From assembly GCA_018065615.1 (NCBI GenBank), contig JAGHSY010000033.1, positions 8,210 through 72,209 of the forward strand: a stretch of DNA of 64,000 bases, read 5' to 3'. The position numbers and the translations under genes were made by a program. Source of the DNA: Candidatus Colenecus caballi. Its GTDB lineage: Bacteria > Bacteroidota > Bacteroidia > Bacteroidales > Bacteroidaceae. Numbering within the stretch: position 1 is the stretch's first letter; every line of letters begins with the position of its first letter. Shown here piece after piece: positions 972 through 62,663 of this stretch. A model generated the notes under the pieces. That model made no database searches. It worked only from the letters and a program-made list of their open reading frames with translations, and was not told the DNA's origin.

Positions 972-981
972 GTTCAGGCCG

Positions 982-1534: not shown

Positions 1535-3028
1535 ATGGGGGTAGTAATCAGACAATCGCTGAAAGGGGCCATACTGACCTACATTGGTGCAGCCATAGGG
1601 TTTGTCACCCAATTCTTCATTGTCACAAGGTTTCTCAATCCGGACATTATCGGACTCACCAAAGTATTCTATGAGGTGGGTAACTTCTTTGCCAGTTTCG
1701 CCCTGCTTGGAGTGACCGCGTCAGGAATGCGCTTCTTCCCCTATTTCAGAGATCCGGAAAAGGGGAACAACGGATTCCTGTTCTGGTATCTCATGATACC
1801 GCTCATAGGTACAGCACTGATTTCAGGTATCTACTGTCTGTGTAAAACTCCGGTTATAGATTTCTTTGCCAAAGATTCGGCTCTGTTCGTTGATTACTTC
1901 TATCTGGTAATTCCCCTGATACTTATTCTGACGCTATGGCAGGCCTTTGAAAACTATTCGAACATCAACATGCGCATTGCCCTGCCAAAAGGGGTGCGTG
2001 AGGTCGGTCTTCGCATATTCACACTGGCTTCATATCTGCTGTATGCATTCGGATACATAGGCATATCAGGTCTGGTTCTGGCCATTCTGTTTTCCTACGG
2101 GCTCTGTCTTCTGATTGATGTCATATATGTCTCAAAAACACAATGCATAAGTCTGAAGCATGACTCAAAATTCATTTCACCCGATCTCAGACGCAGTTTC
2201 TTCAAGTATTCCGGTTTTCTTATTCTTGCAGCCATCAGCCACAACCTGATGAACCAGCTGGACATCTTCATGCTGTCAGGTGTTAAAGGACAGGGATTAT
2301 ACAGCGTGGGCATATATACCATTGCCTTATACATGGCCAATGTCATAGACATGCCTGCACGCTCCATACAGGCCATATCGACACCAATAGCCGCCGATGC
2401 CCTAAAGCGGGATGATTTTGAAACAGCCAATTCGCTGTATAAGAAGGTTTCAATCAACCAGCTTATCATTTCCAGTCTGATTCTGCTGGTAATATGGGTG
2501 AACCTTGACAACATATACGCCATCATTCCAAACGGAGAGACATTCTCCAAGGGACGTTATGTCGTACTGTTCCTGGGATTGTCAAAGATCATTGTATCCA
2601 CTCTGAATTTCGGCAGTATCATGATTCAGTTCTCAAAGTACTATTTCTGGTCCTTGTATATTGCCATATTCATTACAATACTGTCCATCGGCACCAATCT
2701 GTTCTTCATCCCGCGAATGGGTGTTGCCGGAGCAGCACTGGCCACACTCATTGCCACAATAATAAGCTACAGTTACCAGCAGTATCTTGTCCACAAAAAG
2801 GTTCATGGCAATCCGTTCACCTGGAAAACCGTATGGATGATACTTGTTGCCATCGGATTATGGGGCTTGAATTTCCTGATTCCATCTGTGACTCACATAT
2901 CACCCTGGCTTGACATTGCAATCAGATGTCTGGTTATTGGAACCGCCGGTCTCTTCCTGATATACAAACTCAACATATCTCCTGACGTTAACCTGATTCT
3001 GGACAAATTCCTGAAGAAAAAACAATAA
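1535..3028 (+). CDS. oligosaccharide/polysaccharide flippase (Wzx/MOP family) membrane protein
   Basis: Polytopic hydrophobic 497-aa product starting MGVVIRQSLKGAILTYIGAAIGF. The upstream part of ORF 1379..3028 overlaps the small ORF and looks non-coding. It sits at the head of the glycan locus. Confidence 0.75.
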   Translation: MGVVIRQSLKGAILTYIGAAIGFVTQFFIVTRFLNPDIIGLTKVFYEVGNFFASFALLGVTASGMRFFPYFRDPEKGNNGFLFWYLMIPLIGTALISGIYCLCKTPVIDFFAKDSALFVDYFYLVIPLILILTLWQAFENYSNINMRIALPKGVREVGLRIFTLASYLLYAFGYIGISGLVLAILFSYGLCLLIDVIYVSKTQCISLKHDSKFISPDLRRSFFKYSGFLILAAISHNLMNQLDIFMLSGVKGQGLYSVGIYTIALYMANVIDMPARSIQAISTPIAADALKRDDFETANSLYKKVSINQLIISSLILLVIWVNLDNIYAIIPNGETFSKGRYVVLFLGLSKIIVSTLNFGSIMIQFSKYYFWSLYIAIFITILSIGTNLFFIPRMGVAGAALATLIATIISYSYQQYLVHKKVHGNPFTWKTVWMILVAIGLWGLNFLIPSVTHISPWLDIAIRCLVIGTAGLFLIYKLNISPDVNLILDKFLKKKQ

Positions 3029-3036
3029 ATCTGCTT

Positions 3037-4245
3037 ATGTTCAATCTGGACAAATTCATTTCCGACAGCGTAACCGGACGTCCTGCCAGCATGTTTGAAA
3101 AAGACATACTGGACAATAGCCGTCTGTTGTCCGATGAAATAAAAGGAAAATCAGTCTGTGTGATTGGCGGAGCCGGTTCAATCGGTTCAAGCTTTATCAA
3201 AGCTGTTCTCAAGTTTGAACCGGGCAAGGTCGTGGTCATCGACCTGAACGAAAACGGACTGGCTGAACTTGTCCGTGACATACGGTCAACAGAAGGACTG
3301 TTCTGTCCCGATGAATTCCGATGCTACACTCTTAATTTTGCAGATCCTATATTTGAACGCATCTTCCGTGAAGAAAAAGGTTTTGACATAGTGGCCAACT
3401 TCTCGGCCCACAAGCATGTCCGCTCTGAAAAGGACCGCTATTCAGTTCAGGCACTCATTGAGAACAATGACATCAGGGCAAAGAAACTGATGGACCTGCT
3501 GACTGTCTTTCCGCCAAATCACTTCTTCTGCGTCAGTACCGACAAAGCTGCCAACCCGGTCAATATAATGGGAGCATCGAAACGCATCATGGAAGACCTG
3601 GTCATGGCCTATAACAGATACTTCAAAGTCACGACAGCCAGATTTGCAAATGTAGCATTCAGCAACGGATCACTTCCTGACGGATGGATTCACAGGCTCC
3701 AGAAAAAACAGCCCCTTGCTGCTCCTTCAGATGTCAAACGCTATTTTGTATCTCCAGAAGAATCCGGTCAGATATGTATGCTGGCCTGTATTCTCGGAAA
3801 AGGCGGTGAAGTGTTCTTTCCAAAACTTGGCGAAGACCAGATGCTGACCTTCAGCGCTATCTGTGATGACTTTGTAAAGGCCGAAGGCTTCAGAAAGGTT
3901 GAATGCAGGAATGATTCCGAGGCCAGGAAGTTTGCCGCTGACATGTCCTATGAATCTGAGGATTATCCGGTGGTATATTTCAAAAGTGACACCACAGGTG
4001 AGAAAGCATATGAAGAATTCTATGTTCCGGGTGAAAGAATAAGCTTGGACCGTTTCCATGCGCTTGGCGTCATTGAAGAATCTGCCCGCAGAACGATGGA
4101 TGAGGTGAATGCCTTCTTCACTGGCCTTGAGGCTCTGTTTGCTGAAGAGGATTTCACCAAGGCACAGGTCGTCAATGCCATAAGACAGTTCATCCCGAAC
4201 TTCGAACATGAGGAAAAGGGTAAAAACCTTGATCAGAAAATGTAA
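3037..4245 (+). CDS. nucleotide-sugar 4,6-dehydratase (Polysacc_synt_2 / CapD-PglF-LgaA-like)
   Basis: Rossmann VIGGAGSIGSS and the family signature CVSTDKAANPVNIMGASKR. Confidence 0.8.
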   Translation: MFNLDKFISDSVTGRPASMFEKDILDNSRLLSDEIKGKSVCVIGGAGSIGSSFIKAVLKFEPGKVVVIDLNENGLAELVRDIRSTEGLFCPDEFRCYTLNFADPIFERIFREEKGFDIVANFSAHKHVRSEKDRYSVQALIENNDIRAKKLMDLLTVFPPNHFFCVSTDKAANPVNIMGASKRIMEDLVMAYNRYFKVTTARFANVAFSNGSLPDGWIHRLQKKQPLAAPSDVKRYFVSPEESGQICMLACILGKGGEVFFPKLGEDQMLTFSAICDDFVKAEGFRKVECRNDSEARKFAADMSYESEDYPVVYFKSDTTGEKAYEEFYVPGERISLDRFHALGVIEESARRTMDEVNAFFTGLEALFAEEDFTKAQVVNAIRQFIPNFEHEEKGKNLDQKM

Positions 4246-4250
4246 CAGCC

Positions 4251-5402
4251 ATGTACTCGAAAGTAATCAGTTTCATAAAAGAACTTTACGGCAATCAGGA
4301 GTTTACACCTCTGTCTGTACCGAAATTCCTGGGCAAGGAAAAGGAATATCTTAACGAGTGCATTGACACTACATTCGTCAGTTCTGTCGGAAAGTTCGTT
4401 GACAGATTTGAAGAAGAAATTGCACGATACACCGGAGCCGGTCGGGCTGTCGTCTGCGTTTCCGGCACCAATGCCCTGCACATGTCCCTTATGATGGCGG
4501 GAGTGGAGCGCAATGATGAAGTTCTGACGCAGGCCCTTACCTTTATTGCCACCTGCAATGCACTGAGCTATATCGGAGCATATCCGGTTTTCATTGACGT
4601 TGACCGCAGCACAATGGGTCTGAGTCCCGATGCAGTGAAGGAATGGCTCTGCAAAAACACAGAAATCAGGAACTCACAATGCTACAACAGGAATACCGGC
4701 AGACGCGTCAAGGCATGCGTTCCAATGCACACATTCGGTTGTCCGGTACGCATTGGGGAACTTGCGCAAATCTGTCAGGAATACCACATCGAACTTGTTG
4801 AAGACGCTGCTGAAAGCATTGGTTCACGCTACAAAGGCCAGCACACGGGTACATTCGGAAAGGTTGGCGCACTAAGTTTCAACGGCAACAAGACCATTAC
4901 TACAGGCGGTGGCGGCATGCTTCTATTCAAGGACAAGGAGCTGGGAGACTACTGCAAACACATAACCACACAGGCAAAGATTCCTCACCGTTGGGAGTTC
5001 CGTCATGACCATATCGGCTACAACTACCGTATGCCGAATATCAATGCTGCTCTTGGATGTGCTCAGTTGGAGAACCTGGACCGCTACATAGCCGACAAGC
5101 GTGAGACCGCTGCAGCATATGCTGAATTCTTCAGGAATGTTGACGGCATTGATTTCTTTACTGAACCTGAAAACTGCTTCTCCAACTACTGGCTGAACTC
5201 TGTAATCCTCAAGGACAAGAAAGCTCAGCTGGAGTTCCTGCAGGAAACAAATGACAACGGCGTCATGACCCGTCCCATCTGGGAACTCATGACCCGGCTG
5301 CCCATGTTCGAGAACTGTGAAACCGACGGCTTGAAGAACACCGTCTGGTTTGCCGACAGGGTTGTAAACATTCCTTCAAGCGTAAAACTGGAAAAGATAT
5401 GA
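4251..5402 (+). CDS. DegT/DnrJ/EryC1-family PLP-dependent sugar aminotransferase (LegC/LgaB-like)
   Basis: 383 aa. SGTNALHM, and FNGNKTITTGGGGML holding the PLP-lysine context. Confidence 0.85.
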   Translation: MYSKVISFIKELYGNQEFTPLSVPKFLGKEKEYLNECIDTTFVSSVGKFVDRFEEEIARYTGAGRAVVCVSGTNALHMSLMMAGVERNDEVLTQALTFIATCNALSYIGAYPVFIDVDRSTMGLSPDAVKEWLCKNTEIRNSQCYNRNTGRRVKACVPMHTFGCPVRIGELAQICQEYHIELVEDAAESIGSRYKGQHTGTFGKVGALSFNGNKTITTGGGGMLLFKDKELGDYCKHITTQAKIPHRWEFRHDHIGYNYRMPNINAALGCAQLENLDRYIADKRETAAAYAEFFRNVDGIDFFTEPENCFSNYWLNSVILKDKKAQLEFLQETNDNGVMTRPIWELMTRLPMFENCETDGLKNTVWFADRVVNIPSSVKLEKI

Positions 5403-5977
5403 ACAGACCTTTGATTCTAGTTGGCGGCGGAGGCCACTGCAAATCAGTCATAGACGTGGCAGAAAGCGCAGGCTATTCCATTCTGGGCATACTTGACAAG
5501 CCCGAAGAAGTCGGCCGGCAGGTTCTTGCCTACAAGGTTATAGGCACCGATGAAGACATACCCCAGTATGTTGACAAAGCTGAATTTGTCATTACAGTAG
5601 GACAGATCAGAAGCAGCGACCTGCGCCACAGCATTGCACGGCGCATAGAAAAGGCAGGAGGCCATTTTGCAACAGTCATTGCCCCTGATGCATCAGTATC
5701 AGAATACGCCCAAATTGGCGAAGGGACTGTTATCCTTCACAAATGCGTAATCAATGCCGACGCCAAAATAGGACGCAACTGCATAATAAACACCATGGCC
5801 GACATTGAGCATGATGTTGAGATAGGTGATTTCTGTCACATCTCAACAGGAGTAATGGTCAACGGGATGACCAAGATTGGAAGTGACACATTCATTGGCA
5901 GCGGATCAGTGCTTTACAACTGCATTGAAATAGCCGCCGGCAGCATTATTCCTGCAGGAACAACCGTAAGAAAATGA
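5399..5977 (+). CDS. NeuD/PglD-family sugar N-acetyltransferase (left-handed beta-helix)
   Basis: LILVGGGGHCKSV N-terminal Rossmann-like part followed by a hexapeptide-repeat C-terminus. 4-nt overlap with the upstream gene. Confidence 0.8.
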   Translation: MNRPLILVGGGGHCKSVIDVAESAGYSILGILDKPEEVGRQVLAYKVIGTDEDIPQYVDKAEFVITVGQIRSSDLRHSIARRIEKAGGHFATVIAPDASVSEYAQIGEGTVILHKCVINADAKIGRNCIINTMADIEHDVEIGDFCHISTGVMVNGMTKIGSDTFIGSGSVLYNCIEIAAGSIIPAGTTVRK

Positions 5978-6975
5978 AACGTACCCTTATCATTGCCGAG
6001 GCTGGCGTTAACCACAACGGATCCATAGAACTGGCAAAACAGCTTGTGGACAAGGCTGCCACAGCCGGTGTGGATTACGTAAAGTTCCAGACTTTCAAGA
6101 CAGAAAAACTGGTTGCCAGATCTGCCCGGCTGGCTTCATATCAGAAGAATAACATTGGCACTGATGACAATTCACAGTTTGCCATGCTGAAAAAACTGGA
6201 ACTGTCACCGGCACAGCATGAAGAGCTTGTTGCCTACTGCAAGACAAAAGGTGTGAAGTTCTTCTCTACCGCCTTTGATCTGGACAGCATTGACTATCTG
6301 CACAGCCTGGATCTGGGGCTGTGGAAAATTCCGTCAGGTGAGATTACCAACTACCCCTTCATCAAGAAGATTGCCCAATACGGTGAACCTGTCATTCTAT
6401 CCACCGGAATGTGCAATATGCAGGATATAGAAAACGCAGTTGAGACTCTGCGCAAATGGGGAGCACCCAAAATCACCATCCTTCACTGCAATACTGAATA
6501 CCCCACTCCTTTCAATGATGTCAATCTGAAAGCAATGGAGTCAATCCGTCAGAAGTTCGGCGTTGAGGTGGGCTATTCAGACCACACCCAAGGCATTGAA
6601 GTTCCAATAGCAGCAGTCGCTCTTGGCGCCACTGTCATTGAGAAACACTTCACCCTTGACCGTAATATGGAAGGCCCTGACCATAAGGCATCACTTGAGC
6701 CTGATGAACTCAATGCCATGGTATCTGCCATCCGTAACATTGAACAGGCAATGGGTGACGGAATAAAGAAGGTGACCGACAGCGAAAAAGGCAACATGTC
6801 CGTTGCCCGCAAGTCGATAGTCGCAGCATGTGATATCAGGTCAGGAGAAACATTCACAGAAAATAACCTCACAGTAAAACGCCCTGGCACAGGCATATCG
6901 CCAATGCGTTGGGAAGAAGTTATTGGCAAGACTGCCAAGCGCGATTTCATTGAAGAAGAACCTATAGAGTTATGA
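5974..6975 (+). CDS. NeuB-family nonulosonic acid synthase (legionaminic/N-acetylneuraminic acid synthase type)
   Basis: IIAEAGVNHNGS start, a TIM-barrel NeuB body and a C-terminal SAF-like domain (RKSIVAACDIRSGETFTENNL). Confidence 0.88.
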   Translation: MKRTLIIAEAGVNHNGSIELAKQLVDKAATAGVDYVKFQTFKTEKLVARSARLASYQKNNIGTDDNSQFAMLKKLELSPAQHEELVAYCKTKGVKFFSTAFDLDSIDYLHSLDLGLWKIPSGEITNYPFIKKIAQYGEPVILSTGMCNMQDIENAVETLRKWGAPKITILHCNTEYPTPFNDVNLKAMESIRQKFGVEVGYSDHTQGIEVPIAAVALGATVIEKHFTLDRNMEGPDHKASLEPDELNAMVSAIRNIEQAMGDGIKKVTDSEKGNMSVARKSIVAACDIRSGETFTENNLTVKRPGTGISPMRWEEVIGKTAKRDFIEEEPIEL

Positions 6976-8114
6976 GAAAAGTTTGTGTTGTCACCGGCTC
7001 ACGTGCTGAATACGGCATTCTGAGAACACTGATGCAGGCCATCAAGGATGACCCTGAACTTCAGCTCCAGATCATTGCCACCAACCAGCACCTGTCAGAA
7101 CTCCAGGGTGAGACCTATAAGGAGATTGAAAATGACGGCTTCAGCATTGACTTCAAAGTCCCCATGGCTGACGACCAGGCTGCTGACTGCGCATGCACGA
7201 CAGTCAAATCAGTGGGCCGCGGGGTCATTGGCTTTGCCGATGCTTTTGAAGCTCTCAAGCCGGATCTTCTGCTCATTCTCGGTGACCGTTACGAGATGCT
7301 TGCAGTAGCATCGGCCGCTCTCATATTCAAGATACCGGTAGCCCATCTTCATGGTGGTGAGATTACGGAAGGCGCCTTTGACGATTCCATCCGCCACGCA
7401 ATCACCAAGATGAGCCACCTTCATTTCACATCAACTGAAGCCTATAGCAAGCGTGTCATCCAGCTTGGCGAACAGCCTGACCGGGTATTTAACGTCGGTG
7501 CTTTAGGCGTTGAGAACATACACAAGCTTCAGCCCATTTCAAAGCAGGAGATTGAAACATCCTTGAACTTTGAACTCACAGACAAGTGCTTCCTGGTAAC
7601 CTATCATCCCGTTACGCTTTCCAACATGTCCAGCGAGACACAAATCCTGAACCTGCTTGAAGCTCTTGATGATTATCAGGACCATCATATCATATTCACA
7701 TATTCCAACTCGGATACCAGTTCTCAAATCATTATCCGTCGGATTCATGAATATGTAGACCGCAATCCAGTCCGATGCATGTTCATCCCCTCACTTGGAC
7801 AGCGCCGCTATTTCTCCGTATTGCAATATGTGAATGCCGTGATAGGAAACTCATCAAGCGGAATCATTGAGGTTCCCAGTTTTGGAATTCCAACACTTGA
7901 TATCGGCGACCGGCAAAAAGGCCGTATTGCAGCCGACAGCGTCATACACTGCGGTTATGAAGTTTCAGAAATCAGGGAGGGCCTGAAGAGAATTGGCGGA
8001 AAGGCCGATGTACAGAATCCGTATGACAAACCCGGCACATGCCAGGCTATACTTGATGTCATCAAGGACTATCCGCTTGAAAATATTGTTCAGAAACGAT
8101 TTTACGACTTATAA
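6972..8114 (+). CDS. hydrolysing nucleotide-sugar 2-epimerase (NeuC/LegG family)
   Basis: VVTGSRAEYG, AHLHGGE and the SSSGIIE motif are typical of NeuC. Confidence 0.88.
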   Translation: MRKVCVVTGSRAEYGILRTLMQAIKDDPELQLQIIATNQHLSELQGETYKEIENDGFSIDFKVPMADDQAADCACTTVKSVGRGVIGFADAFEALKPDLLLILGDRYEMLAVASAALIFKIPVAHLHGGEITEGAFDDSIRHAITKMSHLHFTSTEAYSKRVIQLGEQPDRVFNVGALGVENIHKLQPISKQEIETSLNFELTDKCFLVTYHPVTLSNMSSETQILNLLEALDDYQDHHIIFTYSNSDTSSQIIIRRIHEYVDRNPVRCMFIPSLGQRRYFSVLQYVNAVIGNSSSGIIEVPSFGIPTLDIGDRQKGRIAADSVIHCGYEVSEIREGLKRIGGKADVQNPYDKPGTCQAILDVIKDYPLENIVQKRFYDL

Positions 8115-8115
8115 T

Positions 8116-8793
8116 ATGGAAAACTTACTGGTCGTCATACCCGCCCGAGGGGGCAGCAAAGGCCTGCCGGGAAAGAATATCAGAAAACTTTGCGGCAAGC
8201 CGCTGATTTGCTATTCCATTGACATTGCACGTACAATTACAAGTGATGCCAATATTTGCGTGTCAACAGATGATCAGAAGATTATTGATACTGTTGAAGA
8301 ATACGGATGCAAAGTTCCTTTTGTACGCCCGGCCCGATATGCCACTGACACTGCGACAACAAATGATGTCCTTCTTCACGCTATATCATATTATGAGAGC
8401 ATCGGACGCAAATATGACAGGATTCTGCTTCTGCAGCCCACGTCACCGTTGAGAACCGCTGCGCAGGTCAGGGAAGCCCTTTCATTGTATAGTGACAATA
8501 TTGATATGGTAGTCTCTGTAACGGAATCACATGCACCTTCAGTACTGTGCAATGACAACGGAGAAGGATTTGTTGAACTGGTTTACAACAAGAAGGCTCT
8601 TGGCAGACAATCTCTCCCAAAGTTCTATGAATTCAATGGAGCCATTTATATCATCAATGTCAAAGCATTGAAGGAGAAAGGGCTTGGCGGTTTCAACAGA
8701 CGGATCAAATATGTAATGCCAAAAGAATCATCCATTGACATTGATGACATTTATGACTTCATGCTGGTGGAATCAATCCTCACACACAAATAA
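8116..8793 (+). CDS. acylneuraminate (nonulosonate) cytidylyltransferase, CMP-sugar synthetase
   Basis: Start chosen at MENLLVVIPARGGSKGLPGKN (CTP_transf_3 signature), 1 nt after the neuC-like stop. The upstream part of ORF 7993.. overlaps the neuC-like gene. Confidence 0.85.
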   Translation: MENLLVVIPARGGSKGLPGKNIRKLCGKPLICYSIDIARTITSDANICVSTDDQKIIDTVEEYGCKVPFVRPARYATDTATTNDVLLHAISYYESIGRKYDRILLLQPTSPLRTAAQVREALSLYSDNIDMVVSVTESHAPSVLCNDNGEGFVELVYNKKALGRQSLPKFYEFNGAIYIINVKALKEKGLGGFNRRIKYVMPKESSIDIDDIYDFMLVESILTHK

Positions 8794-8802
8794 TGACAGA
8801 CT

Positions 8803-9843
8803 ATGTTTGAAAAGTACCTCATATCACAAGACAAGACTATTCTTGATGCTCTGATTGCCATCAACAGCATGGGCAGGAATGAGACTCTGACTCTGTTCGT
8901 TGAAAATTCAAATAAGGAAATCATAGGATCACTTACCGATGGCGACATACGCCGATGTCTGGTTAAGGGCATGACCGTTGACACAAAAGTCAGCGAAATA
9001 GCATTCAAGACCTTCACATACTTGAAGAACGGCGAATATGACATCGAACTGATCCACAGCGCGAAAGCAAAAGGTATAGAACTGATTCCCGTTCTTGACG
9101 ATGGAAAACATCTGATTGATGTGGTCAATCTGAAAAAACAGAAATCGCTCCTGCCCATTGATGCCGTTATCATGGCTGGAGGTAAAGGCGAACGTCTGCG
9201 TCCGCTGACTGACAAGACGCCCAAGCCATTGCTGCCAATGAACGGAAAACCAATCATCGATTATGTTGTCGAACATATCATTTCGTATGGTATTAAGGAC
9301 ATTTCCATAACTGTAAACTATCTGAAAGAACAGATTGAAGAACATTTTGCAGAACCTGTCGGCGACATTAAGGTGACAACAGTCAGCGAGCCCAGATTTC
9401 TTGGCACGATTGGCAGCATTCAGTATGTTCAGAACCTGAAAAATGATACTGTTGTCCTGATGAACAGTGATGCCATAACAGACATCAACCTTGAAGACTT
9501 TTACATACATTTCAAAGAAAATGATGCCGATATAAGCGTTGCCGCCATCCCGTATTCCATATCAGTCCCTTACGGAATTCTTGAGCTGAACGGACATGAC
9601 ATAGAAACGGTACTTGAAAAACCCACATACAATTACTATGCGAATGCCGGCATCTATCTGATAAAAAGAGACCTATTGAAACTGATTCCCAAAGACCAGT
9701 TCTTCAATGCAACAGATTTTCTTGAACTGGCAATTTCAAAAAAATACAAGGTTATCCGATTCCCGCTGAACGGGACCTGGATAGACATAGGCAACCCTCA
9801 GGAATATCAGAAGGCTATTGAATTGGTCAAACATCTGAAGTAA
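8803..9843 (+). CDS. CBS-domain + sugar-1-phosphate nucleotidyltransferase (PtmE/LgaF-like)
   Basis: N-terminal CBS pair region, then AVIMAGGKGERLRPLTDKTPKPLL (NTP_transferase G-loop). Confidence 0.8.
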   Translation: MFEKYLISQDKTILDALIAINSMGRNETLTLFVENSNKEIIGSLTDGDIRRCLVKGMTVDTKVSEIAFKTFTYLKNGEYDIELIHSAKAKGIELIPVLDDGKHLIDVVNLKKQKSLLPIDAVIMAGGKGERLRPLTDKTPKPLLPMNGKPIIDYVVEHIISYGIKDISITVNYLKEQIEEHFAEPVGDIKVTTVSEPRFLGTIGSIQYVQNLKNDTVVLMNSDAITDINLEDFYIHFKENDADISVAAIPYSISVPYGILELNGHDIETVLEKPTYNYYANAGIYLIKRDLLKLIPKDQFFNATDFLELAISKKYKVIRFPLNGTWIDIGNPQEYQKAIELVKHLK

Positions 9844-9848
9844 GAGAG

Positions 9849-10901
9849 ATGAAACATCTCATAGTTGTACATAGCCATCTTTCCTATCTTGTCATCAATC
9901 AGTATTTTCTTGACAGGAATATTGATCCAGACGATTGCCTGTTCATTGTAAATGCCCGATACAGACACTTGCCGGAAGGAAACCACTATACCAATTTCAT
10001 ATTTTTTCCTGATGAACTGCTGCCGGATGGTTTTAAGAGAGTTTTCCATAAGAACAACATCATAACCGGAATAAAGAACATAAAATACATTGAAAACAGA
10101 ATCAATGAATTCTTTCATGGTGATTTATTCCTAATGTATCTGACAACCACCAGCCTTGATTACCTGAGCGCGCTGGTTACAATGAAGCAGTGTAAAGGCT
10201 ACTATCTGATGGAAGAAGGATCGGCCTCATATTACAGGAAGGCCGAAATTCCCAAACTCTATAAGGGAGCAGCATACGGATTCGCTTTCATCCTGTCTAA
10301 GATCCTGCCCAGATTCTTTGCCTTGAAATGTTCGTCATTCTCATACGACAACAAGTACTTTCTTGGAACAATTTCCACTGCAGAAAATGCTTTTCCTGAC
10401 TTTCCGGGCGTACACATTGTCATCAATACTCCATTTACAGGAATCGAACTTGATTCTGTTCCGGATGTCATACTCTCAATTGATTCCAGCCTTATGATTT
10501 CCTTAGGAGATTTCTTTCCAAAGGAACTCTATGAGAAGATTGCCGTATTCTTCAAAAATAAAGGCTATAAGAGCATTGCCTATAAGTTCCATCCAAAATA
10601 TTTCGTATTTCCTGAACTGCTTGCGGCTTATAGAGAAGGCCTGACAAGTGTATTTGGTGAAAGCATTGTGGAACTGCCTGAAAGCAGCCAGCTTGAAAAT
10701 TATTTTCTGTCATATCCGATAGACTTCTGCTCAGACTTCTCATCAGTGGGAATCTATGCATCGAACTTTGGCAGAAAGTGTTACAGTTACAGAGATCTTG
10801 TAATGGAAACATATCCTGACAGCACTTATGACAAAGATTTCAACATTCCGAAAATAGTATTCGGATTTTATACGAAAATCAATGCATCAGAAATTCAATA
10901 A
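9849..10901 (+). CDS. hypothetical protein; candidate nonulosonic-acid (sialyl-type) transferase
   Basis: 350 aa with no family I recognise outright. It contains YYLMEEGSASYY (D/E-D/E-G) and AYKFHPKYF (HP), the two motifs shared by bacterial sialyltransferases. It lies immediately after the CMP-sugar pathway genes. The DNA is AT-rich. Confidence 0.45.
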   Translation: MKHLIVVHSHLSYLVINQYFLDRNIDPDDCLFIVNARYRHLPEGNHYTNFIFFPDELLPDGFKRVFHKNNIITGIKNIKYIENRINEFFHGDLFLMYLTTTSLDYLSALVTMKQCKGYYLMEEGSASYYRKAEIPKLYKGAAYGFAFILSKILPRFFALKCSSFSYDNKYFLGTISTAENAFPDFPGVHIVINTPFTGIELDSVPDVILSIDSSLMISLGDFFPKELYEKIAVFFKNKGYKSIAYKFHPKYFVFPELLAAYREGLTSVFGESIVELPESSQLENYFLSYPIDFCSDFSSVGIYASNFGRKCYSYRDLVMETYPDSTYDKDFNIPKIVFGFYTKINASEIQ

Positions 10902-10930
10902 TTAATTCGTACTTTCGCCAGTAATAGAAA

Positions 10931-12304
10931 ATGATTATGAAGAATATAGCAGTCGTCTTGGCAGGAGGTGTAGGAGAACGATGTGGCCTGGGTGCCCCGA
11001 AACAGTTCTTCAAGGTGGCCGGCAAAACTGTCATTGAACATACCGTTGACGTGTTCCAGAACAACAGGCACATTGATGAGATTGCTCTGGTAATAAATGC
11101 CATGTTCCAGCGTGAGATTCAGGATATGGTGACGCGCAACAAATGGTCAAAGGTCAAGAAAATCCTTCTTGGAGGAAAGGAACGTTACGAATCAAGCCTG
11201 GCCGCCATCAATGCCTATGACATGTACCCTGACTGCAACCTTATTTTCCATGACGCCGTACGTCCGCTGCTTGACGACCGTATCATTGATGACATAGTTG
11301 CCGCTCTGGACCGGTATCAGGCAATTGACGTAGCCGTACCCGCCACAGACACAATCATTCAGGTCGATGCTGACGGACAGTTCATTGAAAACATTCCCAA
11401 CCGCCGCCTTCTCAGGCGCGGCCAAACCCCACAGGCCTTCAGGCAGAAGACCATCAGGGAAGCATACGAAATTGCTCTGAAGGATCCTGATTTCGTGTCG
11501 TCCGATGACTGCGGAACCGTTGTGAAATACCTGCCACAGGTCAAAGTCTATGTGGTCAGGGGCGAGGAATCAAACATGAAGCTCACTTACAAGGAAGATT
11601 CATATCTGCTTGACAAGCTGTTCCAGCTCAGGTCAACATCTGTCCGTGACGATGCAGATCTGACAGTACTGAAAGGTAAGGTTCTTGCCGTTTTCGGAGG
11701 CAATTCAGGCATAGGTGCAGAGATCATGAAGAAGGCGGAATCATTCGGTGGAATCGCATATTCTTTCTCAAGGAGTACAACTGGAACAGACATTGCAGAC
11801 CGCAGCTCCGTCAAGGCTTGTCTGGAAAAGATTGCATCGGAACAGGGCCATATAGACTATGTGGTGAATTCGGCCGCTATACTGGTCCGCGAACCATTGG
11901 TGACCATGGACGAGAATGTCCTGTCAACTATGATAAGAACAAACTATGACGGAATGGTCAACATTGCCGTGGAAAGTTTCCCTTATCTGAAACAGAGCCA
12001 TGGCCAGCTGCTGCTGTACACATCAAGTTCATACACGCGCGGACGTGCCCTATACAGCATCTATTCATCAACAAAGGCAGCTGTAGTCAACTTCATGCAG
12101 GCACTGGCACAGGAATGGGACGCTGACGGCATACGTGTCAACGTCATGAATCCGGAACGCACCAAAACGCCAATGCGCCTGCAGAATTTCGGAAACGAGC
12201 CTGAAGGCACTCTGCTTGATGCCGCAACTGTGGCCGATGCCTCACTCAAGACACTGATATCGGACCTGACAGGTCAGGTATTTGACGTCCGCATAAAGAA
12301 ATGA
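10931..12304 (+). CDS. bifunctional cytidylyltransferase/short-chain reductase, Bcs1-like CDP-ribitol synthase
   Basis: N-terminal IspD/TarI-like VVLAGGVGERCGLGAPKQF. C-terminal SDR with FGGNSGIGAEI and the catalytic YSSTK. Confidence 0.75.
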   Translation: MIMKNIAVVLAGGVGERCGLGAPKQFFKVAGKTVIEHTVDVFQNNRHIDEIALVINAMFQREIQDMVTRNKWSKVKKILLGGKERYESSLAAINAYDMYPDCNLIFHDAVRPLLDDRIIDDIVAALDRYQAIDVAVPATDTIIQVDADGQFIENIPNRRLLRRGQTPQAFRQKTIREAYEIALKDPDFVSSDDCGTVVKYLPQVKVYVVRGEESNMKLTYKEDSYLLDKLFQLRSTSVRDDADLTVLKGKVLAVFGGNSGIGAEIMKKAESFGGIAYSFSRSTTGTDIADRSSVKACLEKIASEQGHIDYVVNSAAILVREPLVTMDENVLSTMIRTNYDGMVNIAVESFPYLKQSHGQLLLYTSSSYTRGRALYSIYSSTKAAVVNFMQALAQEWDADGIRVNVMNPERTKTPMRLQNFGNEPEGTLLDAATVADASLKTLISDLTGQVFDVRIKK

Positions 12305-13497
12305 CGGTCATGAAATTCATTGCCTACCTGATCTGCTACATAATTTATCCGTTCTCATTCCTGTTCCCACGCAGCAGGAACAAATATGCATTCGGCAGTT
12401 TCCGCGGATCGTTCAATGACAACGCCCGCTATCTGTTCATATATGCAGCCGGACATTCTGAGGGCGAAATCAGGACGGCATGGATTTCAAAGAACCGGGA
12501 CAGCGTAAGGAAAGCCCGCAGCTACGGACTCAGGGCATATTGGATTTTCAATCCCGCCGGAATCTGGTATGCGCTGACATCAAGATACTGGTTCTTCAAC
12601 TCATATACATCGGACATAATGTTCTGCCTGTCAGGCGGTGCGGTCTGTATAAACCTGTGGCACGGCGTCGGTCTGAAAAGAACAGAGTTCAACACCATAT
12701 CCGGCCCGCTTGCCGATCGTTATTCAAAGAAGAACAGGCTGGATGTATTCTACCACCCTGAATCATTCCGCCGGCCGGACTGGCTTCTTACATCCACCCC
12801 GTTCCAGACATCCATGTTCGCTAAGGCATTCCGCATTCCTGAAGACCGTTGTCTGGAATTCGGATACCCCAGAAACCGCATCCTGACATGCAGTGAAGAT
12901 GAACGCAGCAGTTTCATAAGGAAATATGAGACAACTGAAACCGGTCAGTTCATTGAAAGGCTGGCAGGATATGACAAGGTGTATGTCTATATGCCCACAT
13001 GGCGTGACTCACAACGGACAATATTCTTACAGAGCATGGACCTTGAACGGCTTAACGGCATAATGGCCGGAAAACATTCTCTGCTAATACTCAAACCGCA
13101 TGCCAACGTCATTCTGACAGACAACATACAGTCACTTTCAAATGTCATCCTCTTTGATCCGAAAATGGACATCTATCCGGTGCTGCCCTATTCCGATGTC
13201 CTGATTACCGACTATTCGTCAATCCTTTACGACTGGCTTCTCATGGAATATAAGGATGTCATACTCTACCTGTATGACTATGAGACATACGTTAAGGAAC
13301 GTGACTTCTATTATCCGTTTGACGAAAATGTGGCTGGCACAAAGGTCTATGATTTCGAATCATTGTGTTCATGTCTGGAATCAGGGGACCACGCCATGTC
13401 CGATGACGAACGCTGCAGGATTGTGGAAAAGTTCTGGGGCCGGTCAGCAGGATATGACTCATCGGAAAAGATTTTGGAATTTGTTGAAAGAATATGA
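12301..13497 (+). CDS. CDP-alditol phosphotransferase (TagB/TagF, Glyphos_transf family)
   Basis: YMPTWRDS and VLITDYSSILYDW are signature motifs of teichoic-acid-type glycerol/ribitol-phosphate transferases. Confidence 0.8.
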   Translation: MTVMKFIAYLICYIIYPFSFLFPRSRNKYAFGSFRGSFNDNARYLFIYAAGHSEGEIRTAWISKNRDSVRKARSYGLRAYWIFNPAGIWYALTSRYWFFNSYTSDIMFCLSGGAVCINLWHGVGLKRTEFNTISGPLADRYSKKNRLDVFYHPESFRRPDWLLTSTPFQTSMFAKAFRIPEDRCLEFGYPRNRILTCSEDERSSFIRKYETTETGQFIERLAGYDKVYVYMPTWRDSQRTIFLQSMDLERLNGIMAGKHSLLILKPHANVILTDNIQSLSNVILFDPKMDIYPVLPYSDVLITDYSSILYDWLLMEYKDVILYLYDYETYVKERDFYYPFDENVAGTKVYDFESLCSCLESGDHAMSDDERCRIVEKFWGRSAGYDSSEKILEFVERI

Positions 13498-14399
13498 TTT
13501 CAGTTATAATCTGCACATACAATAGAGAGAAGTACATCTATAACGTACTGAAAAGCCTTGCTGACGGCACTATGCCTGCAAACGCATATGAAATCATACT
13601 TGTTGACAACAACTGTACTGACGGAACACGTCAGGAAGTGGACCGGTTCTGTAAAGATTTCCCGAACGTACAGCTGAGATACTGTATAGAAACCAATCAG
13701 GGCCTGTCCCATGCCCGCAACAGGGGAATCCAGGAATCAGCAGGCAACATACTGGTCTATGTCGATGATGACGCAACAGTAAATGCAGAATACCTTTCAG
13801 CCTATGCCTCATGGTTTGAAGCCCACCCCGAAACCCATGCGGCAGGCGGACCAATCATTCCACATTATGAAACAGGCAGTGAACCGCGCTGGATGACCTA
13901 TTTCATAAAGAGACTCCTGACCGGATATCTGTATTTTGGAGACAAGGCCAAACCTTTCCCCGGTGACAACTACCCCGGAGGCGGAAATGCCGCATACCGC
14001 AGGGAAGTGTTTGATAAGGTCGGACTTTACAACGTCCAGCTGGGACGTAACGGTGACAGTCTGGCCGGCGGTGAGGAAAAGGACATATTCAACAAAATGA
14101 AAAAGGAAGACATGCAGTTCACATATCTTCCCGATGCTGTTCTGTATCACAGCATTCCAGCCTACAAACTGGAACCTGACTATTTCAACCGCCTGACATA
14201 CAGCATAGGTCAGAGCGAAAGGGCACGTACTTTAAAAATTGGAAAGAAAGCTTACCGTGGACGTATTCTGTCAGAGTGCAGGAAATGGGCCGCAACAATT
14301 GTATTGTGGTGTTTCTATCTTGTTACATTCAGACCGTCACGCGGAAATATGCTCATACGCTTCCGCCGCAATGTGACACGTGGCCTGACCGGAAAATAA
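13494..14399 (+). CDS. family 2 glycosyltransferase
   Basis: ISVIICTYNRE, VDNNCTDGT and the DxD-type VYVDDDA. Confidence 0.85.
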   Translation: MISVIICTYNREKYIYNVLKSLADGTMPANAYEIILVDNNCTDGTRQEVDRFCKDFPNVQLRYCIETNQGLSHARNRGIQESAGNILVYVDDDATVNAEYLSAYASWFEAHPETHAAGGPIIPHYETGSEPRWMTYFIKRLLTGYLYFGDKAKPFPGDNYPGGGNAAYRREVFDKVGLYNVQLGRNGDSLAGGEEKDIFNKMKKEDMQFTYLPDAVLYHSIPAYKLEPDYFNRLTYSIGQSERARTLKIGKKAYRGRILSECRKWAATIVLWCFYLVTFRPSRGNMLIRFRRNVTRGLTGK

Positions 14400-14978
14400 T
14401 CAGCCGAACACCTTCTCCAGCAAATCAACAAACTCCCTGTAGGCAAACGTATCCTTGAGTTCTGAGAGCGATGCCGCCAGACCGCGGTAGTGCCACTCAT
14501 GGTCTGCCTTGCCGCCAGGAGCATGGAAAAGGCTCCACAGCTTGTCTCCGTCCTTCATATAGTCCCTGTAGATGGCGCGCATGTTTGACAGCTTGTCACC
14601 CATGGCCACCATTTTGGAATCCGTTGACACTTTTGCCAGACGGTCAATTGCGGCCTGCTTGCGGTCACGCCAGCTGTCAGTCTCACTTACCCCTTCAGTG
14701 AACCTGTCACTTTCAGAATCGACAATGGCGGCAATCCTGTCACCGAATTCGGCACGGATCTGTTCAACGGTGACATCGGTGTCCTCAACCGTATCATGAA
14801 GTGCGGCGGCGGCCAGCAGTTCCTGGTCCGATGTCATGGAAGCCACAATTTCCACAGCTTCCATCGGATGTACTATGTACGGAAAACCCTTTCCGCGACG
14901 TTCAGTATTCTCATGTGCCTTGACTGCAAATACTATTGCCTTGTCAAGCAGTGCCGTATCAATGTACTTGTTTCCCAT
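14400..14978 (-). CDS. HD-domain small alarmone hydrolase (SpoT/Mesh1-like (p)ppGpp-type pyrophosphohydrolase)
   Basis: 192 aa. HPMEAVEIV, AAALHDTVEDTD and MGDKLSNMRA match the RSH hydrolase-domain motifs. The start lies 2 nt after the synthetase stop. Confidence 0.8.
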   Translation of the reverse strand: MGNKYIDTALLDKAIVFAVKAHENTERRGKGFPYIVHPMEAVEIVASMTSDQELLAAAALHDTVEDTDVTVEQIRAEFGDRIAAIVDSESDRFTEGVSETDSWRDRKQAAIDRLAKVSTDSKMVAMGDKLSNMRAIYRDYMKDGDKLWSLFHAPGGKADHEWHYRGLAASLSELKDTFAYREFVDLLEKVFG

Positions 14979-14980
14979 AC

Positions 14981-16099
14981 CTACTGTTTTTTCATGAACG
15001 GCATCCTGGCTGTCTTTTCAACCAGCCTCTGTGCCCTTGTCCTGTTATATGATGATGGTCCGTTCAGTTCATCAAAGAATGATGCCAGACCGTCTTCTCC
15101 GCCTCCGTTTTTAAGAATATGTACGATGCACAGATCCTGGACTGACACCGTCGATGAAATGATGTCAAGGTCCGTACCGCCAATTTCAAGCTTTGCCAGC
15201 TGATAGGCATCATCACTTGACTCCTTCTGCAGCTTCTCAATGTCACCAAGAGTCTTGAAACCCAGATACTTGAACATTCTCAGATACGGCATCAGGGTGT
15301 CCTGATGGATTTCGGCCTGATTGATGGCTGCAATATGGTTGTTCAGTTTGTCAAAAGGCTTCAGATTCAGGTAACTGCGGAACGTGTCGACATCAAGTGA
15401 GACCTCGTCAAAATTACCGCTGGCAACCAGAGCCTGTACCTGACGGCGGTATTCGTTGACGGCTATGCGGATGCGGCTGAACTCGTCATCGGCAAGTTCA
15501 AGCACTCCGGCCAGACGGTTCATGTTCCTCAAATGCTCGACAGGAATCTCCACATCACCCTTGTATCCGCAGTCATGGTTCATGTTGGCCCACATGTGCT
15601 GCAGGGTTGTACGCAGCTGCAGTTCCCATCGGAATTCATTTATCTCCGGATGGGCCGGATCGTGGTACAGTTTCTTTGGGACACGGCAGATGTAATGCAG
15701 TGACATGTATCCGAAACTGTCAAGAGTGTGCATCTTGCGCTTGTCAACTGAATTCTCCCAGTCAATGTCAAAGTTGTTTTCTGCAATGGCCGCAATCTTG
15801 TCCACGTCATCAGTATAGAAAGTGATGACACGTGTACCGACAATGTCCGTGATGTCACTCAGAGTCCTGTATTTGTGACCTTTCAGTTCCAGCTTGCCGG
15901 CAAGGCTCTTCTCTTCCTTGACACGCCCTTCAACTGCAGTTACAAACATGCCGTTCTGTTTGAGCGCCTGTCTTATGCAGTCCAGAATGATTTCCTTTAT
16001 CTTGACGAATGACTCATAGTTTGCACGATACTCTTCAAGTATCATCGTGCAGTGCATGTCAAGACCGTATTTTTCAAGATCGTCCTGTTCCATAAACAT
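14981..16099 (-). CDS. RelA/SpoT-synthetase-domain protein (small alarmone synthetase-like pyrophosphokinase) with ~160-aa C-terminal extension
   Basis: RVKEEKSLAGK, DIVGTRVITF, GYMSLHYI and ELQLRTTLQHMWANMNHD are the four synthetase motifs, all intact. I do not recognise the C-terminal third. Confidence 0.85.
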   Translation of the reverse strand: MFMEQDDLEKYGLDMHCTMILEEYRANYESFVKIKEIILDCIRQALKQNGMFVTAVEGRVKEEKSLAGKLELKGHKYRTLSDITDIVGTRVITFYTDDVDKIAAIAENNFDIDWENSVDKRKMHTLDSFGYMSLHYICRVPKKLYHDPAHPEINEFRWELQLRTTLQHMWANMNHDCGYKGDVEIPVEHLRNMNRLAGVLELADDEFSRIRIAVNEYRRQVQALVASGNFDEVSLDVDTFRSYLNLKPFDKLNNHIAAINQAEIHQDTLMPYLRMFKYLGFKTLGDIEKLQKESSDDAYQLAKLEIGGTDLDIISSTVSVQDLCIVHILKNGGGEDGLASFFDELNGPSSYNRTRAQRLVEKTARMPFMKKQ

Positions 16100-16884
16100 C
16101 AGATGAGATATCTGTTCCTCATTGTTTCAATATCGCGGTCTGTCATGCCGAAACACTTATGCAGATAGTCCAGCAAAGAGCCGTATCTGCTGCAGATGGC
16201 ATCAAGTCCCATCCTGAAATACTCCACATTGGCGCCGGCAAAAGTCTGGATGACCTTTTTGACCTCAATGTCTGTAACTCCCATTCTGTCACAGAGTTCC
16301 CTGACTTTGCTCGAATACTGGAAATTTGACAGGTCATAGTCAGCCACAATAGTGTCAATGTCACAGCCAAGTGCCGCAAGAACAAATGCGGCACCCATTC
16401 CGGTGCGGTCCTTGCCCTGCGAACAGTGCCACAGAATGGCACCGTCCTCATTGTCAACGACCAGACGCATGAACTTTGCATATGCAGGAACAGCACCGTC
16501 ACCAAGGCCCAGATCCATGTACATCTGTCTGGCAAAAGCCTGCACCTGCGGACGGTCGGCATACCTTATCAGCATGTCCAGCGGGTCAGCGTCATCATTC
16601 TTGAAGATTTCCTTCCAGACTTCACCGTTGGAATCAATCAACGGCATATGCAGATATCTGGCACCCGGAATCATCCGGTCCGGCGCCATTTCCACCTCAT
16701 AGTCAGAACGGAAATCAACGACAGTACGCACCCTGTAGCCATTGGCCAGCAGGTCCAGATCGGAATCCGATGCCTTTATGAGCGCACCGCAGCGTAAAAG
16801 CACCCCCGATCTGATAACGCGGCCTTCCTTATTTTTCAGACCGCCAAGACACCTGAAGTTTACAATATGTTCAGGTTCTCTCAT
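16099..16884 (-). CDS. protein-tyrosine-phosphatase-superfamily phosphatase (CX5R, Tyr_phosphatase_3-like)
   Basis: P-loop WHCSQGKDRTG. TGATG stop/start overlap with the downstream synthetase gene. Confidence 0.75.
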   Translation of the reverse strand: MREPEHIVNFRCLGGLKNKEGRVIRSGVLLRCGALIKASDSDLDLLANGYRVRTVVDFRSDYEVEMAPDRMIPGARYLHMPLIDSNGEVWKEIFKNDDADPLDMLIRYADRPQVQAFARQMYMDLGLGDGAVPAYAKFMRLVVDNEDGAILWHCSQGKDRTGMGAAFVLAALGCDIDTIVADYDLSNFQYSSKVRELCDRMGVTDIEVKKVIQTFAGANVEYFRMGLDAICSRYGSLLDYLHKCFGMTDRDIETMRNRYLI

Positions 16885-16891
16885 CAGACAA

Positions 16892-17194
16892 TCAGATTAT
16901 CTTGATGATGTTTGAGAAACCGGTAATGTCAAACACTTCCTTTACCTGGGGGTTCATGTTGGTCATGACCATGCTGCCGCCACGTGAGTTGACACTCTTC
17001 TGAAGCATGAGGAACATTCTCAGTCCCTGGCTTGAAGTGTATTCCATTGCAGTGCAGTCAAGTGTAATATCGGGTTTTTCTCCTGTCATCAGCGGTTCGA
17101 TGTCCTTCTGGAACTGGTCTGCGTTTGTGGTGTCAAGACGGCCTTCAAGCACAACATTGAATTTGTTTTCCTCCTGATTGATAGTTACATTCAT
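16892..17194 (-). CDS. STAS-domain anti-sigma-factor antagonist (SpoIIAA/RsbV-like)
   Basis: 100 aa with the conserved phospho-serine context EYTSSQGLRMF. Confidence 0.85.
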   Translation of the reverse strand: MNVTINQEENKFNVVLEGRLDTTNADQFQKDIEPLMTGEKPDITLDCTAMEYTSSQGLRMFLMLQKSVNSRGGSMVMTNMNPQVKEVFDITGFSNIIKII

Positions 17195-17228
17195 AGTAGT
17201 TTTCAGTTTATTGTTATTTGTTATTGTT

Positions 17229-17627: not shown

Positions 17628-17699
17628 TTCGTCCTTATTTTGAATAGCGCAAAGAAAACGAAAAAAGTGCCTAAAATCAAATAATACCATATCTTTCTT

Positions 17700-17707
17700 T
17701 ATCTTTG
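17700..17707 (+). promoter_or_regulatory. candidate Bacteroidota -7 promoter box (TAnnTTTG)
   Basis: TATCTTTG lies 22 nt upstream of the lipid-kinase ATG, inside the 102-bp divergent intergenic region. Confidence 0.3.
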
Positions 17708-17729
17708 TAATACAGAAACTATTGTTGAC

Positions 17730-62635: not shown

Positions 62636-62643
62636 TATTTTTG
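62636..62643 (+). promoter_or_regulatory. candidate Bacteroidota -7 promoter box (TAnnTTTG)
   Basis: TATTTTTG lies 20 nt upstream of the trmH-like ATG. Confidence 0.3.
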
Positions 62644-62663
62644 CACAGTATATTTAAAAAATA

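Follow-up and report, generated by a model that had tools for sequence, protein, structure and literature searches.

A predicted CMP-legionaminic acid transferase related to family GT38 in a glycan locus of Candidatus Colenecus caballi

To our knowledge, glycosyltransferase (GT) family GT38 is so far known only for the polysialic acid polymerases of a few pathogens. Named systems are MhPST/SiaD of Mannheimia haemolytica (Protein Data Bank (PDB) entries 5wc6 and 5wcn), NeuS of Escherichia coli K1, and SiaD of Neisseria meningitidis B and C. A protein of 350 amino acids (aa), called here the target, is encoded at 9849..10901 of the window, by which is meant the whole stretch of 64,000 nucleotides (nt) of DNA of Candidatus Colenecus caballi (Bacteroidales, Bacteroidaceae), a gut bacterium, that was analyzed. 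It very probably is a GT38-related transferase using an ulosonic acid activated by cytidine monophosphate (CMP), and lies directly downstream of genes predicted to make the CMP form of legionaminic acid (Leg). Like GT38 enzymes, the target has a GT-B fold, an E-E-G base loop, a K-x-H-P donor motif, a ribose-binding Glu and a phosphate-binding S-S/T pair, and a metal-independent, inverting, CMP-donor mechanism is predicted for it. Unlike MhPST, it is shorter by about 30 residues (350 vs 381–382 aa in the crystallised chain) and acidic rather than strongly basic, and it lacks, judged by a charge proxy only, the electropositive groove of that enzyme. The genetic context also differs, as the target locus features a Leg pathway and a Wzx-like flippase, instead of N-acetylneuraminic acid (Neu5Ac) synthesis and a group-2 kps/ABC capsule locus.

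Sialyltransferases of families GT52 (Neisseria Lst/NST) and GT80 (PmST1, Photobacterium 2,6-ST) have in common with MhPST the D/E-D/E-G and HP motifs and the contacts to the ribose and phosphate of CMP (PMC5517516). The target shares both motifs with them, and single transfer is predicted for it as well. CMP-Neu5Ac is the native donor of the GT52 and GT80 enzymes, unlike the CMP-Leg predicted for the target; PmST1 and N. meningitidis Lst take CMP-Leg5,7Ac2 in vitro (PMC11356810). The target does not match the GT52 family PF07922, which is weakly matched (E 0.086) by one of 45 members of the target family, and neither the target nor any of the 45 members matches GT80 in Pfam. In another member of the Bacteroidales, Tannerella forsythia, transfer of nonulosonic acids (NulO) requires TFUB4_00887/Tanf_01245, proteins of 442–445 aa with a DXD motif and a domain of TagB/GT-B type in the Conserved Domain Database, which are reported to carry D/E-D/E-G and HP motifs and are encoded directly downstream of the locus for CMP-Leg or CMP-pseudaminic acid (CMP-Pse) (PMC5420450). 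The target is similar in host order, in position directly downstream of a CMP-Leg locus and in both motifs; set against the published descriptions of the Tannerella proteins, it differs in being 350 aa long and in having no match to PF04464.

Other enzymes use similar donors. Maf proteins, such as C. jejuni Maf4 and C. botulinum Maf, have been proposed as native Leg transferases with CMP-NulO donors (PMC9298399; bioRxiv 10.1101/2020.06.03.131540). They differ from the target in fold and domain (Maf_flag10), in having flagellin Ser/Thr residues as acceptor, and in residing in flagellar loci; Maf_flag10 has no Pfam match in the target, and flagellar genes are missing from its locus. Members of GT99 (WbbB), GT107 (KpsC/KpsS), GT118 (KpsS1, for Pse) and GT140 (KrkA) use CMP-ulosonate donors, as predicted for the target. 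They retain configuration by means of an Asp nucleophile; the target family has no conserved Asp, and has a base loop of the inverting type. The founding of new CAZy families for ulosonate transferases continues, with GT118 added in 2024 and GT140 in 2026 (PMC12887879), and legionaminyltransferases are still described as very poorly known (PMC11356810). A GT38-like Leg transferase was not found described in the literature searched, subscription-only papers being outside its reach.

Fold, residues and kinship with GT38

The target open reading frame (ORF), taken from a mechanical ORF list with translations, opens with an ATG. It was called unannotatable in a preliminary description of this DNA, and database searches bear this out. 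No Pfam family was matched at E≤0.01, the sole match at E≤10 (TscT) being spurious; NCBIfam gave no matches, and PDB sequences, searched by phmmer and by hmmsearch with three ever-deeper family profiles, returned nothing real. The NCBI entry of a cluster member at least 90% identical to the target reads 'hypothetical protein [Bacteroidaceae bacterium]'. PDB matches to J-domain proteins were rejected as chance, KFHP and its flanking helices resembling the KYHPD segment of DnaJ, and a match to a viral anti-CRISPR protein was rejected likewise. The likeness of KFHP (10584–10595) to the DnaJ segment is a trap for motif-based annotation.

Both sialyltransferase motifs that had been noticed in the ORF are in place. 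The segment YYLMEEGSASYY begins at residue 118 and contains E122-E123-G124; AYKFHPKYF begins at residue 244, and the codons of H248-P249 are nt 10590–10595. Their order and rough distance stand as described, the exact distance being 126 residues rather than about 120. By itself, the two-motif pattern is suggestive, not decisive. With the same order and spacing it arises in 1.6% of shuffles of the target protein, and in the window it is found in 1/40 long ORFs, the target itself. A constellation of five elements, described below, arises in 0/20,000 shuffles. Insertion into the membrane is not suggested, as the maximal Kyte-Doolittle hydropathy over 19 residues is 1.38 and no transmembrane segment is predicted.

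The preliminary description had made its assignment depend on a GT-B-like fold, and a GT-B fold is confidently predicted. A first AlphaFold2 model, built from 12 sequences, had a predicted local distance difference test score (pLDDT) of 70.5, below 50 in the EEG loop, and was replaced by a model built from 45 diverse sequences (pLDDT 94.0, predicted template modelling score 0.90), in which two Rossmann-like beta/alpha/beta domains are seen. The top match found by Foldseek was the same for the weaker first model and the final one. The closest solved structures are those of the GT38 polysialyltransferase MhPST, which hold rank 1 (5wcn_A, E 7.6e-10, template modelling (TM) score 0.64) and rank 2 (5wc6_A, E 5.2e-8, TM 0.66) in the PDB. 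Structures of GT52 or GT80 were not found among the top 50 matches. Of the three families named at the outset as possible relatives, GT38 is therefore supported, GT52 and GT80 are not.

The next matches (TM ≤0.52) are to GT-B proteins of a generic kind, such as UDP-GlcNAc 2-epimerases, plant UGTs, WaaA and MurG. Since the epimerases (WecB, NeuC) come next after MhPST, the target might be a GT-B-fold protein which does not transfer the nonulosonate of the locus, being a nucleotide-sugar epimerase or hydrolase, or a glycosyltransferase with another donor. This is highly improbable: a NeuC/LegG epimerase is already present in the locus, TM scores to MhPST (0.64–0.66) exceed those to the epimerases, the conserved residues fit the CMP-binding and catalytic set of sialyltransferases, and co-occurrence of the family with CMP-ulosonate pathways is near-universal.

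In the structural alignment, identity between the target and MhPST is about 13–14%. The register of the residues was obtained by hhalign, in which a profile of 101 family sequences was compared to the single MhPST sequence in local, relaxed MAC threshold and global modes; the MhPST sequence was the PDB chain as printed by HMMER, and 19 was added to chain positions to reach the numbering of the paper. The local alignment (E 1.4e-4) covers a C-terminal block, the global one (E 3.5e-5) 267 columns. With the relaxed MAC threshold or in global mode, E122-E123-G124 falls, in colinear order, on E152-E153-G154 of MhPST (VEEGTG). K246 falls on K289 and H248 on H291 (KFHP on KLHP), E283 on E323, S298/S299 on S339/T340, and Y303 on the Tyr that follows. 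The spacings are alike in the target and MhPST: 125 vs 138 residues from base to His, 35 vs 32 from His to Glu, 15 vs 16 from Glu to Ser.

The roles of these MhPST residues rest on structures and kinetics (PMC5517516). Within the D/E-D/E-G motif, E153 serves as catalytic base, its loop being supported by E152. Cytosine O2 is bound by K289, and the phosphate by S339 and T340, with H291 acting on it as catalytic acid; E323 holds the ribose hydroxyls in a bidentate manner, and K293 pins the acceptor (PMC5517516).

A third line of evidence comes from Pfam. The GT38 family PF07388 is matched at E≤0.1 by 14/45 members of the target family, and at least two of them pass its threshold: against a gathering score of 23.3, P0037 of Solitalea lacus, matching over the full length, reaches 41.8 bits and P0059 reaches 30. 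In NCBI, P0037 is named 'alpha-2,8-polysialyltransferase family protein'; searched by phmmer against the PDB, it did not reach MhPST. The link to GT38 draws on the agreement of Pfam transitivity, fold rank and residue register. As far as sequence comparison tells, the membership of the target in PF07388 is transitive, at superfamily level, and not direct. The target is a GT38-related variant and not a strict GT38 member, because it fails the sequence threshold, is not basic, and has another donor pathway and locus type.

Relatives and their gene neighbourhoods

A word-indexed search retrieved 11 relatives of the target (35–99% identity), none of which has a Pfam domain. A profile made from the 12 close sequences, run against 1.84 billion cluster representatives, identified 644 proteins at E≤1e-3, 319 of which at E≤1e-10; little was added by a word-indexed search with a 45-sequence profile, which found 13 proteins only. 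Most members consist of this one domain, at about 340 residues. In a few cases it lies within a protein of 1100–2100 residues, fused to HAD, sulfotransferase or pyruvyltransferase domains. P0036 (2118 aa), P0057 (1468 aa) and P0039 (1549 aa) are giant multidomain proteins with the family domain N-terminal or nearly so; its partners are either a polysaccharide pyruvyltransferase domain, or HAD phosphatase together with sulfotransferase domains. The arrangement suggests that the giant fusions are single-polypeptide assembly lines for modified ulosonate glycans.

Conservation was followed in the alignment of the 12 closest relatives, in alignment A2, and in alignment A3, which includes 101 distant members, 16–26% identical to the target. 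In the latter, E122, G124 and Y303 are invariant, and E123, K246, H248, P249, E283, S298 and S299 are conserved in at least 90% of the members; the other alignments agree, and E283 is invariant in A2. Conservation of the two motifs among homologues, the second point on which the initial assignment had been made to depend, is thus confirmed, and the conserved residue set is larger than the two motifs first noted. The evidence supports the view that the family is a large, mostly unannotated, distant branch of the GT38 (PF07388) polysialyltransferase lineage.

Neighbourhoods were analyzed in loci drawn from metagenome contigs and species-representative genomes. In 14 distinct loci, the gene directly upstream of the homologue encodes a NeuB-family synthase. 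These loci reside in Bacteroidaceae, Paludibacteraceae, other Bacteroidales, Sphingobacterium, and Oscillospiraceae (Firmicutes). NeuB-linked homologues range down to 21% identity (P0160). The full leg operon is found in the window and in loci L001, L008 and L009/L020. L005 features a Pse-like set (aminotransferase, CMP-transferase, large acetyltransferase, NeuB), while NeuB, a CMP-transferase and a HAD phosphatase of the ketodeoxynonulosonic acid (Kdn)/Neu-9-P type are found in L004, L007 and L011. In L015 (Haloferula chungangensis, 6718–13089) a 22%-identical member is located between a KdsA-like/HAD/CBS/KdsB-like set and two sulfotransferase genes. The pathway looks like one of the Kdo (3-deoxy-D-manno-octulosonate) type. 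The constant partner of the family is a pathway for a CMP-activated 2-keto-3-deoxy acid sugar, whichever the sugar, and the co-occurrence is near-universal. That the target is a transferase using the CMP-nonulosonate made by the upstream genes, as originally proposed, is supported by the GT-B/GT38 fold, the motif register and the NeuB neighbourhoods; that Leg itself is transferred we infer from gene context.

Two of these loci show further features. The arrangement in L015 is a hint that this Verrucomicrobium may have a Kdo-like glycan that is sulfated. In the Oscillospiraceae locus L011, the NulO genes and the family member (4205–7463, 11368–12579) have Fic, Schlafen/AlbA_2-HATPase_c_4 and AAA_14/DUF4143 genes on their flanks. 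Genes of this kind are typical of mobile or defence islands, and their presence agrees with a horizontal spread of the NulO module.

The Kdo-like pathway adjoining the distant member in L015 bears on a different mechanism, in which the target would act as a retaining enzyme of the beta-Kdo-transferase type (GT99/GT107/GT140-like, or GT118-like for Pse), by double displacement via an Asp nucleophile. The C-terminal domains of the retaining enzymes resemble MhPST (PMC12887879), and PF05159 (Capsule_synth, KpsC/KpsS) is weakly matched by 4/45 members (best E 0.0027). However, matches to PF07388 are more numerous and far stronger, GT99 and GT107 structures are not found in the top 50 fold matches, and the family keeps, in the N-domain, the E-E-G base loop that is typical of inverting sialyltransferases. 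A family-wide conserved Asp is missing; D296, invariant among the 12 closest relatives only, is lost in A2 and A3. A retaining enzyme is therefore very unlikely, and the assignment to the inverting GT38-related transferases is kept.

Some results weigh against this assignment. The target protein itself has no match to PF07388 even at E≤10, and so falls short of the gathering score of 23.3 bits; family profiles run by hmmsearch match no GT38 chains in the PDB; the hhalign probability is only 45–52%, because the template is a single sequence. The five elements would cluster round one cleft according to the MhPST alignment, and the function of the family is predicted from sequence, fold and gene context. 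The gene of the Pfam-positive P0037 is an orphan, none of its neighbours belonging to a sugar pathway. Finally, transfer of Leg or Pse in T. forsythia needs TagB/GT-B-type proteins, as established by knock-out and complementation (PMC5420450), and the window encodes a full-length PF04464 protein two genes downstream of the target.

The Tannerella precedent and this downstream gene raise the alternative that the TagF-like protein (12301–13497) is the Leg transferase, and that the target moves another sugar or has another role. The distribution of the TagF-like gene argues against it. The gene tracks the fused CDP-ribitol synthase gene, occurring only where the fusion does (window, L001, L008), and is missing from L009/L020 as from the Pse- and Kdn-like loci L005, L007 and L011. 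In L009/L020 the whole leg operon and the target homologue are followed by GT4, GT2 and YfhO genes, and neither TarIJ nor a TagF-like gene is present. The simplest substrate for the TagF-like protein is CDP-ribitol made by the product of the adjacent gene, and the full CMP-binding constellation of sialyltransferases is found on the target, not on the TagF-like protein. A role of the latter as Leg transferase is accordingly improbable, and the target is preferred for this function. IspD-like cytidylyltransferase genes found in L004 (7055–7759), L011 (5380–6102) and L014 (650–1330) accompany the family in the absence of a TagF-like phosphotransferase.

The glycan locus and its composition

The locus is a closely packed operon on the plus strand (Table 1), ending with a GT2 gene, after which unrelated genes are found on the opposite strand. 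As judged from family and domain matches, the seven genes upstream of the target would make up a complete CMP-legionaminic acid pathway, including LegB/C/H/G/I/F and a GDP-sugar entry enzyme. The target opens 5 nt past the PtmE-like gene, the seventh and last of them. CMP-Leg is the sole CMP-activated sugar made in the locus, because the seven-gene leg route is the only CMP-sugar pathway there, and LegF is predicted to make the donor of the target. Scored against the PseF equivalog, LegF reaches 140 bits and not the cutoff of 205.7, as expected for a non-Pse enzyme. The CDP-ribitol synthase gene product scores 146.8 bits against NF001183 (ribitol-5-P cytidylyltransferase), under its cutoff of 166 bits. 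The target gene has weak metatranscriptome coverage.

Table 1. Genes of the glycan locus and predicted functional codons of the target, in window coordinates
Feature	Position	Strand	Evidence
Wzx-like multi-pass membrane protein, probable lipid-linked-glycan flippase	1535..3028	+	translation; 35% identical (E 1.5e-80) to PF01943 Polysacc_synt gene in L004
LegB-like NAD-dependent 4,6-dehydratase (Polysacc_synt_2)	3037..4245	+	PF02719 124 bits
LegC aminotransferase	4251..5402	+	TIGR04181 544.6 bits, cutoff 420
LegH-type N-acetyltransferase (NeuD/PglD family)	5399..5977	+	TIGR03570 186.8 bits, cutoff 160.8
LegI / NeuB-family nonulosonate synthase	5974..6975	+	TIGR03569 513.2 bits, cutoff 399.65; PF03102 and SAF
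LegG / NeuC-family hydrolysing 2-epimerase	6972..8114	+	TIGR03568 458.9 bits, cutoff 235.9
LegF-type CMP-nonulosonate synthetase, 226 aa	8115..8793	+	PF02348 78.6 bits, cutoff 22.6; orthologues 226 aa
PtmE-like CBS and sugar-1-phosphate nucleotidyltransferase, GDP-sugar entry to Leg pathway	8803..9843	+	PF00483 124.6 bits, weak CBS
Target gene	9849..10901	+	350-aa GT-B glycosyltransferase, predicted inverting CMP-legionaminic acid transferase, GT38-related
Codons E122-E123-G124, D/E-D/E-G motif	10212..10220	+	conservation and alignment to VEEGTG of MhPST
Codons K246-F247-H248-P249, HP motif	10584..10595	+	conservation and hhalign
Codon E283, predicted CMP ribose 2'/3'-OH bidentate ligand	10695..10697	+	aligned to E of PAEDF (MhPST E323)
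Codons S298-S299, predicted CMP phosphate ligands	10740..10745	+	aligned to S-T of IASTS (MhPST S339/T340)
Fused IspD-like cytidylyltransferase and short-chain dehydrogenase/reductase, CDP-ribitol synthase (TarI-TarJ type)	10931..12304	+	PF01128 151 bits, adh_short 98 bits
TagF/TarF-like CDP-alditol phosphotransferase, probable ribitol-phosphate transferase	12301..13497	+	PF04464 182.6 bits, full length
GT2 glycosyltransferase, final gene of glycan locus	13494..14399	+	PF00535 104.9 bits

Two start codons of the ORF list are artefacts. The TTG at 7993 assigned to LegF overlaps NeuC, the real start being the ATG at 8115; the TTG at 1379 assigned to the Wzx-like gene is most likely to be replaced by the ATG at 1535 (MGVVIRQ...).

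The glycan locus resides at a fixed chromosomal site, as seen by comparing the window (1–1404 and 14400–17975) with L005, L007, L009 and L020. One side is marked by queA-folK-Wzx, the other by a block of HD_4, RelA_SpoT-like synthetase, Y_phosphatase3, STAS and HATPase genes. The cassette located 3' of the target differs among strains, and is made of TarIJ-TagF-GT2, GT4-GT2-YfhO or GT1_2-GT1_4-YfhO genes. The site appears to be a hypervariable surface-glycan site. In orthologues with different downstream cassettes, identity differs little between N- and C-terminal domains (49 vs 58% in P0007), and this comparison was not used as evidence.

The locus is clearly mosaic. Two metatranscriptome assemblies (X26, X27) match the window from exactly 10936 on, where the CDP-ribitol synthase gene starts, and carry the TarIJ-TagF-GT2 module. 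Upstream of this position they are unrelated to the window, and a recombination junction is thereby marked at the 3' edge of the target. LegF is 41–43% identical to the gene in the same position in L001, L008 and L009, whereas identity of the flanking leg genes is 74–87%. On these identities, LegF looks like an allele or a xenologue replacement within an otherwise conserved operon. No other gene of the locus has as low a GC content at third codon positions as LegF (37%, computed from nt 8124, which shares the frame of the 8115 start).

The target gene has the lowest GC content of the locus (38.7%), which corresponds to the 3.9th percentile of 1053-nt windows (mean 48.6%, standard deviation 4.1). 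The hand counts of the preliminary description are exact (23/60 G+C at 9901–9960, 32/60 at 6301–6360). The suggestion drawn from them, of a module acquired separately, is weak. The GC content of the homologue is below that of both flanks in 13/13 loci, in genomes ranging from 32% to 52% GC, and because of this low GC is a family trait and not a mark of recent import. Serotype-specific transferase genes commonly have low GC. The GC minimum of the entire window is located elsewhere, at ~61701–62750 (33.6% over 1053 nt).

Predicted reaction and significance

The target would be a soluble or peripheral cytoplasmic GT-B glycosyltransferase, its C-terminal Rossmann domain binding the CMP moiety of CMP-legionaminic acid supplied by the seven upstream genes. 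Contacts to the cytosine would be made by K246, those to the ribose hydroxyls by E283 and those to the phosphate by S298/S299, while H248 would stabilise or protonate the departing CMP phosphate. Upon domain closure, E123, in a loop of the N-terminal domain, would deprotonate the acceptor hydroxyl, which would attack C2 of Leg in a single SN2-like step with inversion of configuration, giving alpha-linked Leg. The acceptor may be an undecaprenyl-phosphate-linked oligosaccharide, the same that would also be given ribitol phosphate by TarIJ and the TagF-like protein, and a hexose or hexosamine by the GT2 enzyme, before the Wzx-like protein flips the finished oligosaccharide. Such a mechanism is what a specialist would expect of an inverting, metal-independent GT-B sialyltransferase. 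Donor identity (Leg), single as opposed to processive transfer, inversion and acceptor are all points that we infer. CMP-Leg as donor together with a single alpha-linked addition is, taken jointly, a likely combination.

The alternative of a processive polymerase making poly-legionaminic acid, a Leg counterpart of GT38, deserves attention, as the closest characterised relatives of the target are polymerases. Leg homopolymers occur in nature, an example being the O-antigen of Legionella pneumophila serogroup 1. The charge of the target points in the opposite direction. The polyanionic product of MhPST sits in a prominent electropositive groove (PMC5517516), and residues 41–343 of that enzyme have an isoelectric point (pI) of 9.6 and a net charge of +23; the target has a pI of 6.0 and a net charge of -5, its close relatives a pI of 6.1–8.4. 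Moreover, K250, the counterpart of the acceptor-pinning K293, is not conserved in the family, and the locus has no ABC-transporter/kps system; besides the target, its products include three more transferases and a flippase of the Wzx type, a set typical of heteropolymer repeat units. Since the target is acidic, the K293 equivalent is not conserved, and the locus is of the Wzx heteropolymer-like type, the target probably adds a single Leg residue, and a polymerase is unlikely.

Extended to the family (at least 644 clusters at 50% identity), the proposal is that its members are GT38-derived, non-polymerising CMP-ulosonate transferases, the donor being set by the adjoining pathway (Leg, Pse-like, Kdn/Neu-like, Kdo-like). 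We regard this generalization as evenly balanced between true and false.

Chemoenzymatic synthesis of Leg glycans now relies on borrowed or engineered sialyltransferases. If the proposed function is correct, the target would be the first legionaminyltransferase of this fold that is native and glycan-directed, and a soluble Leg transferase of 350 residues would be a tool for making Leg glycoconjugates (probes, glycan arrays, vaccine antigens). The gene would also serve as a marker for predicting the display of Leg by gut Bacteroidales. The family would represent a natural panel of enzymes for installing bacterial sialic-acid analogues, and its own CAZy family, or a GT38 subfamily, may be warranted. 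GT38 as known to date would then be the visible tip of a far larger family, which resides in commensal Bacteroidota, Firmicutes, Verrucomicrobiota and Cyanobacteria, and handles several ulosonic acids.

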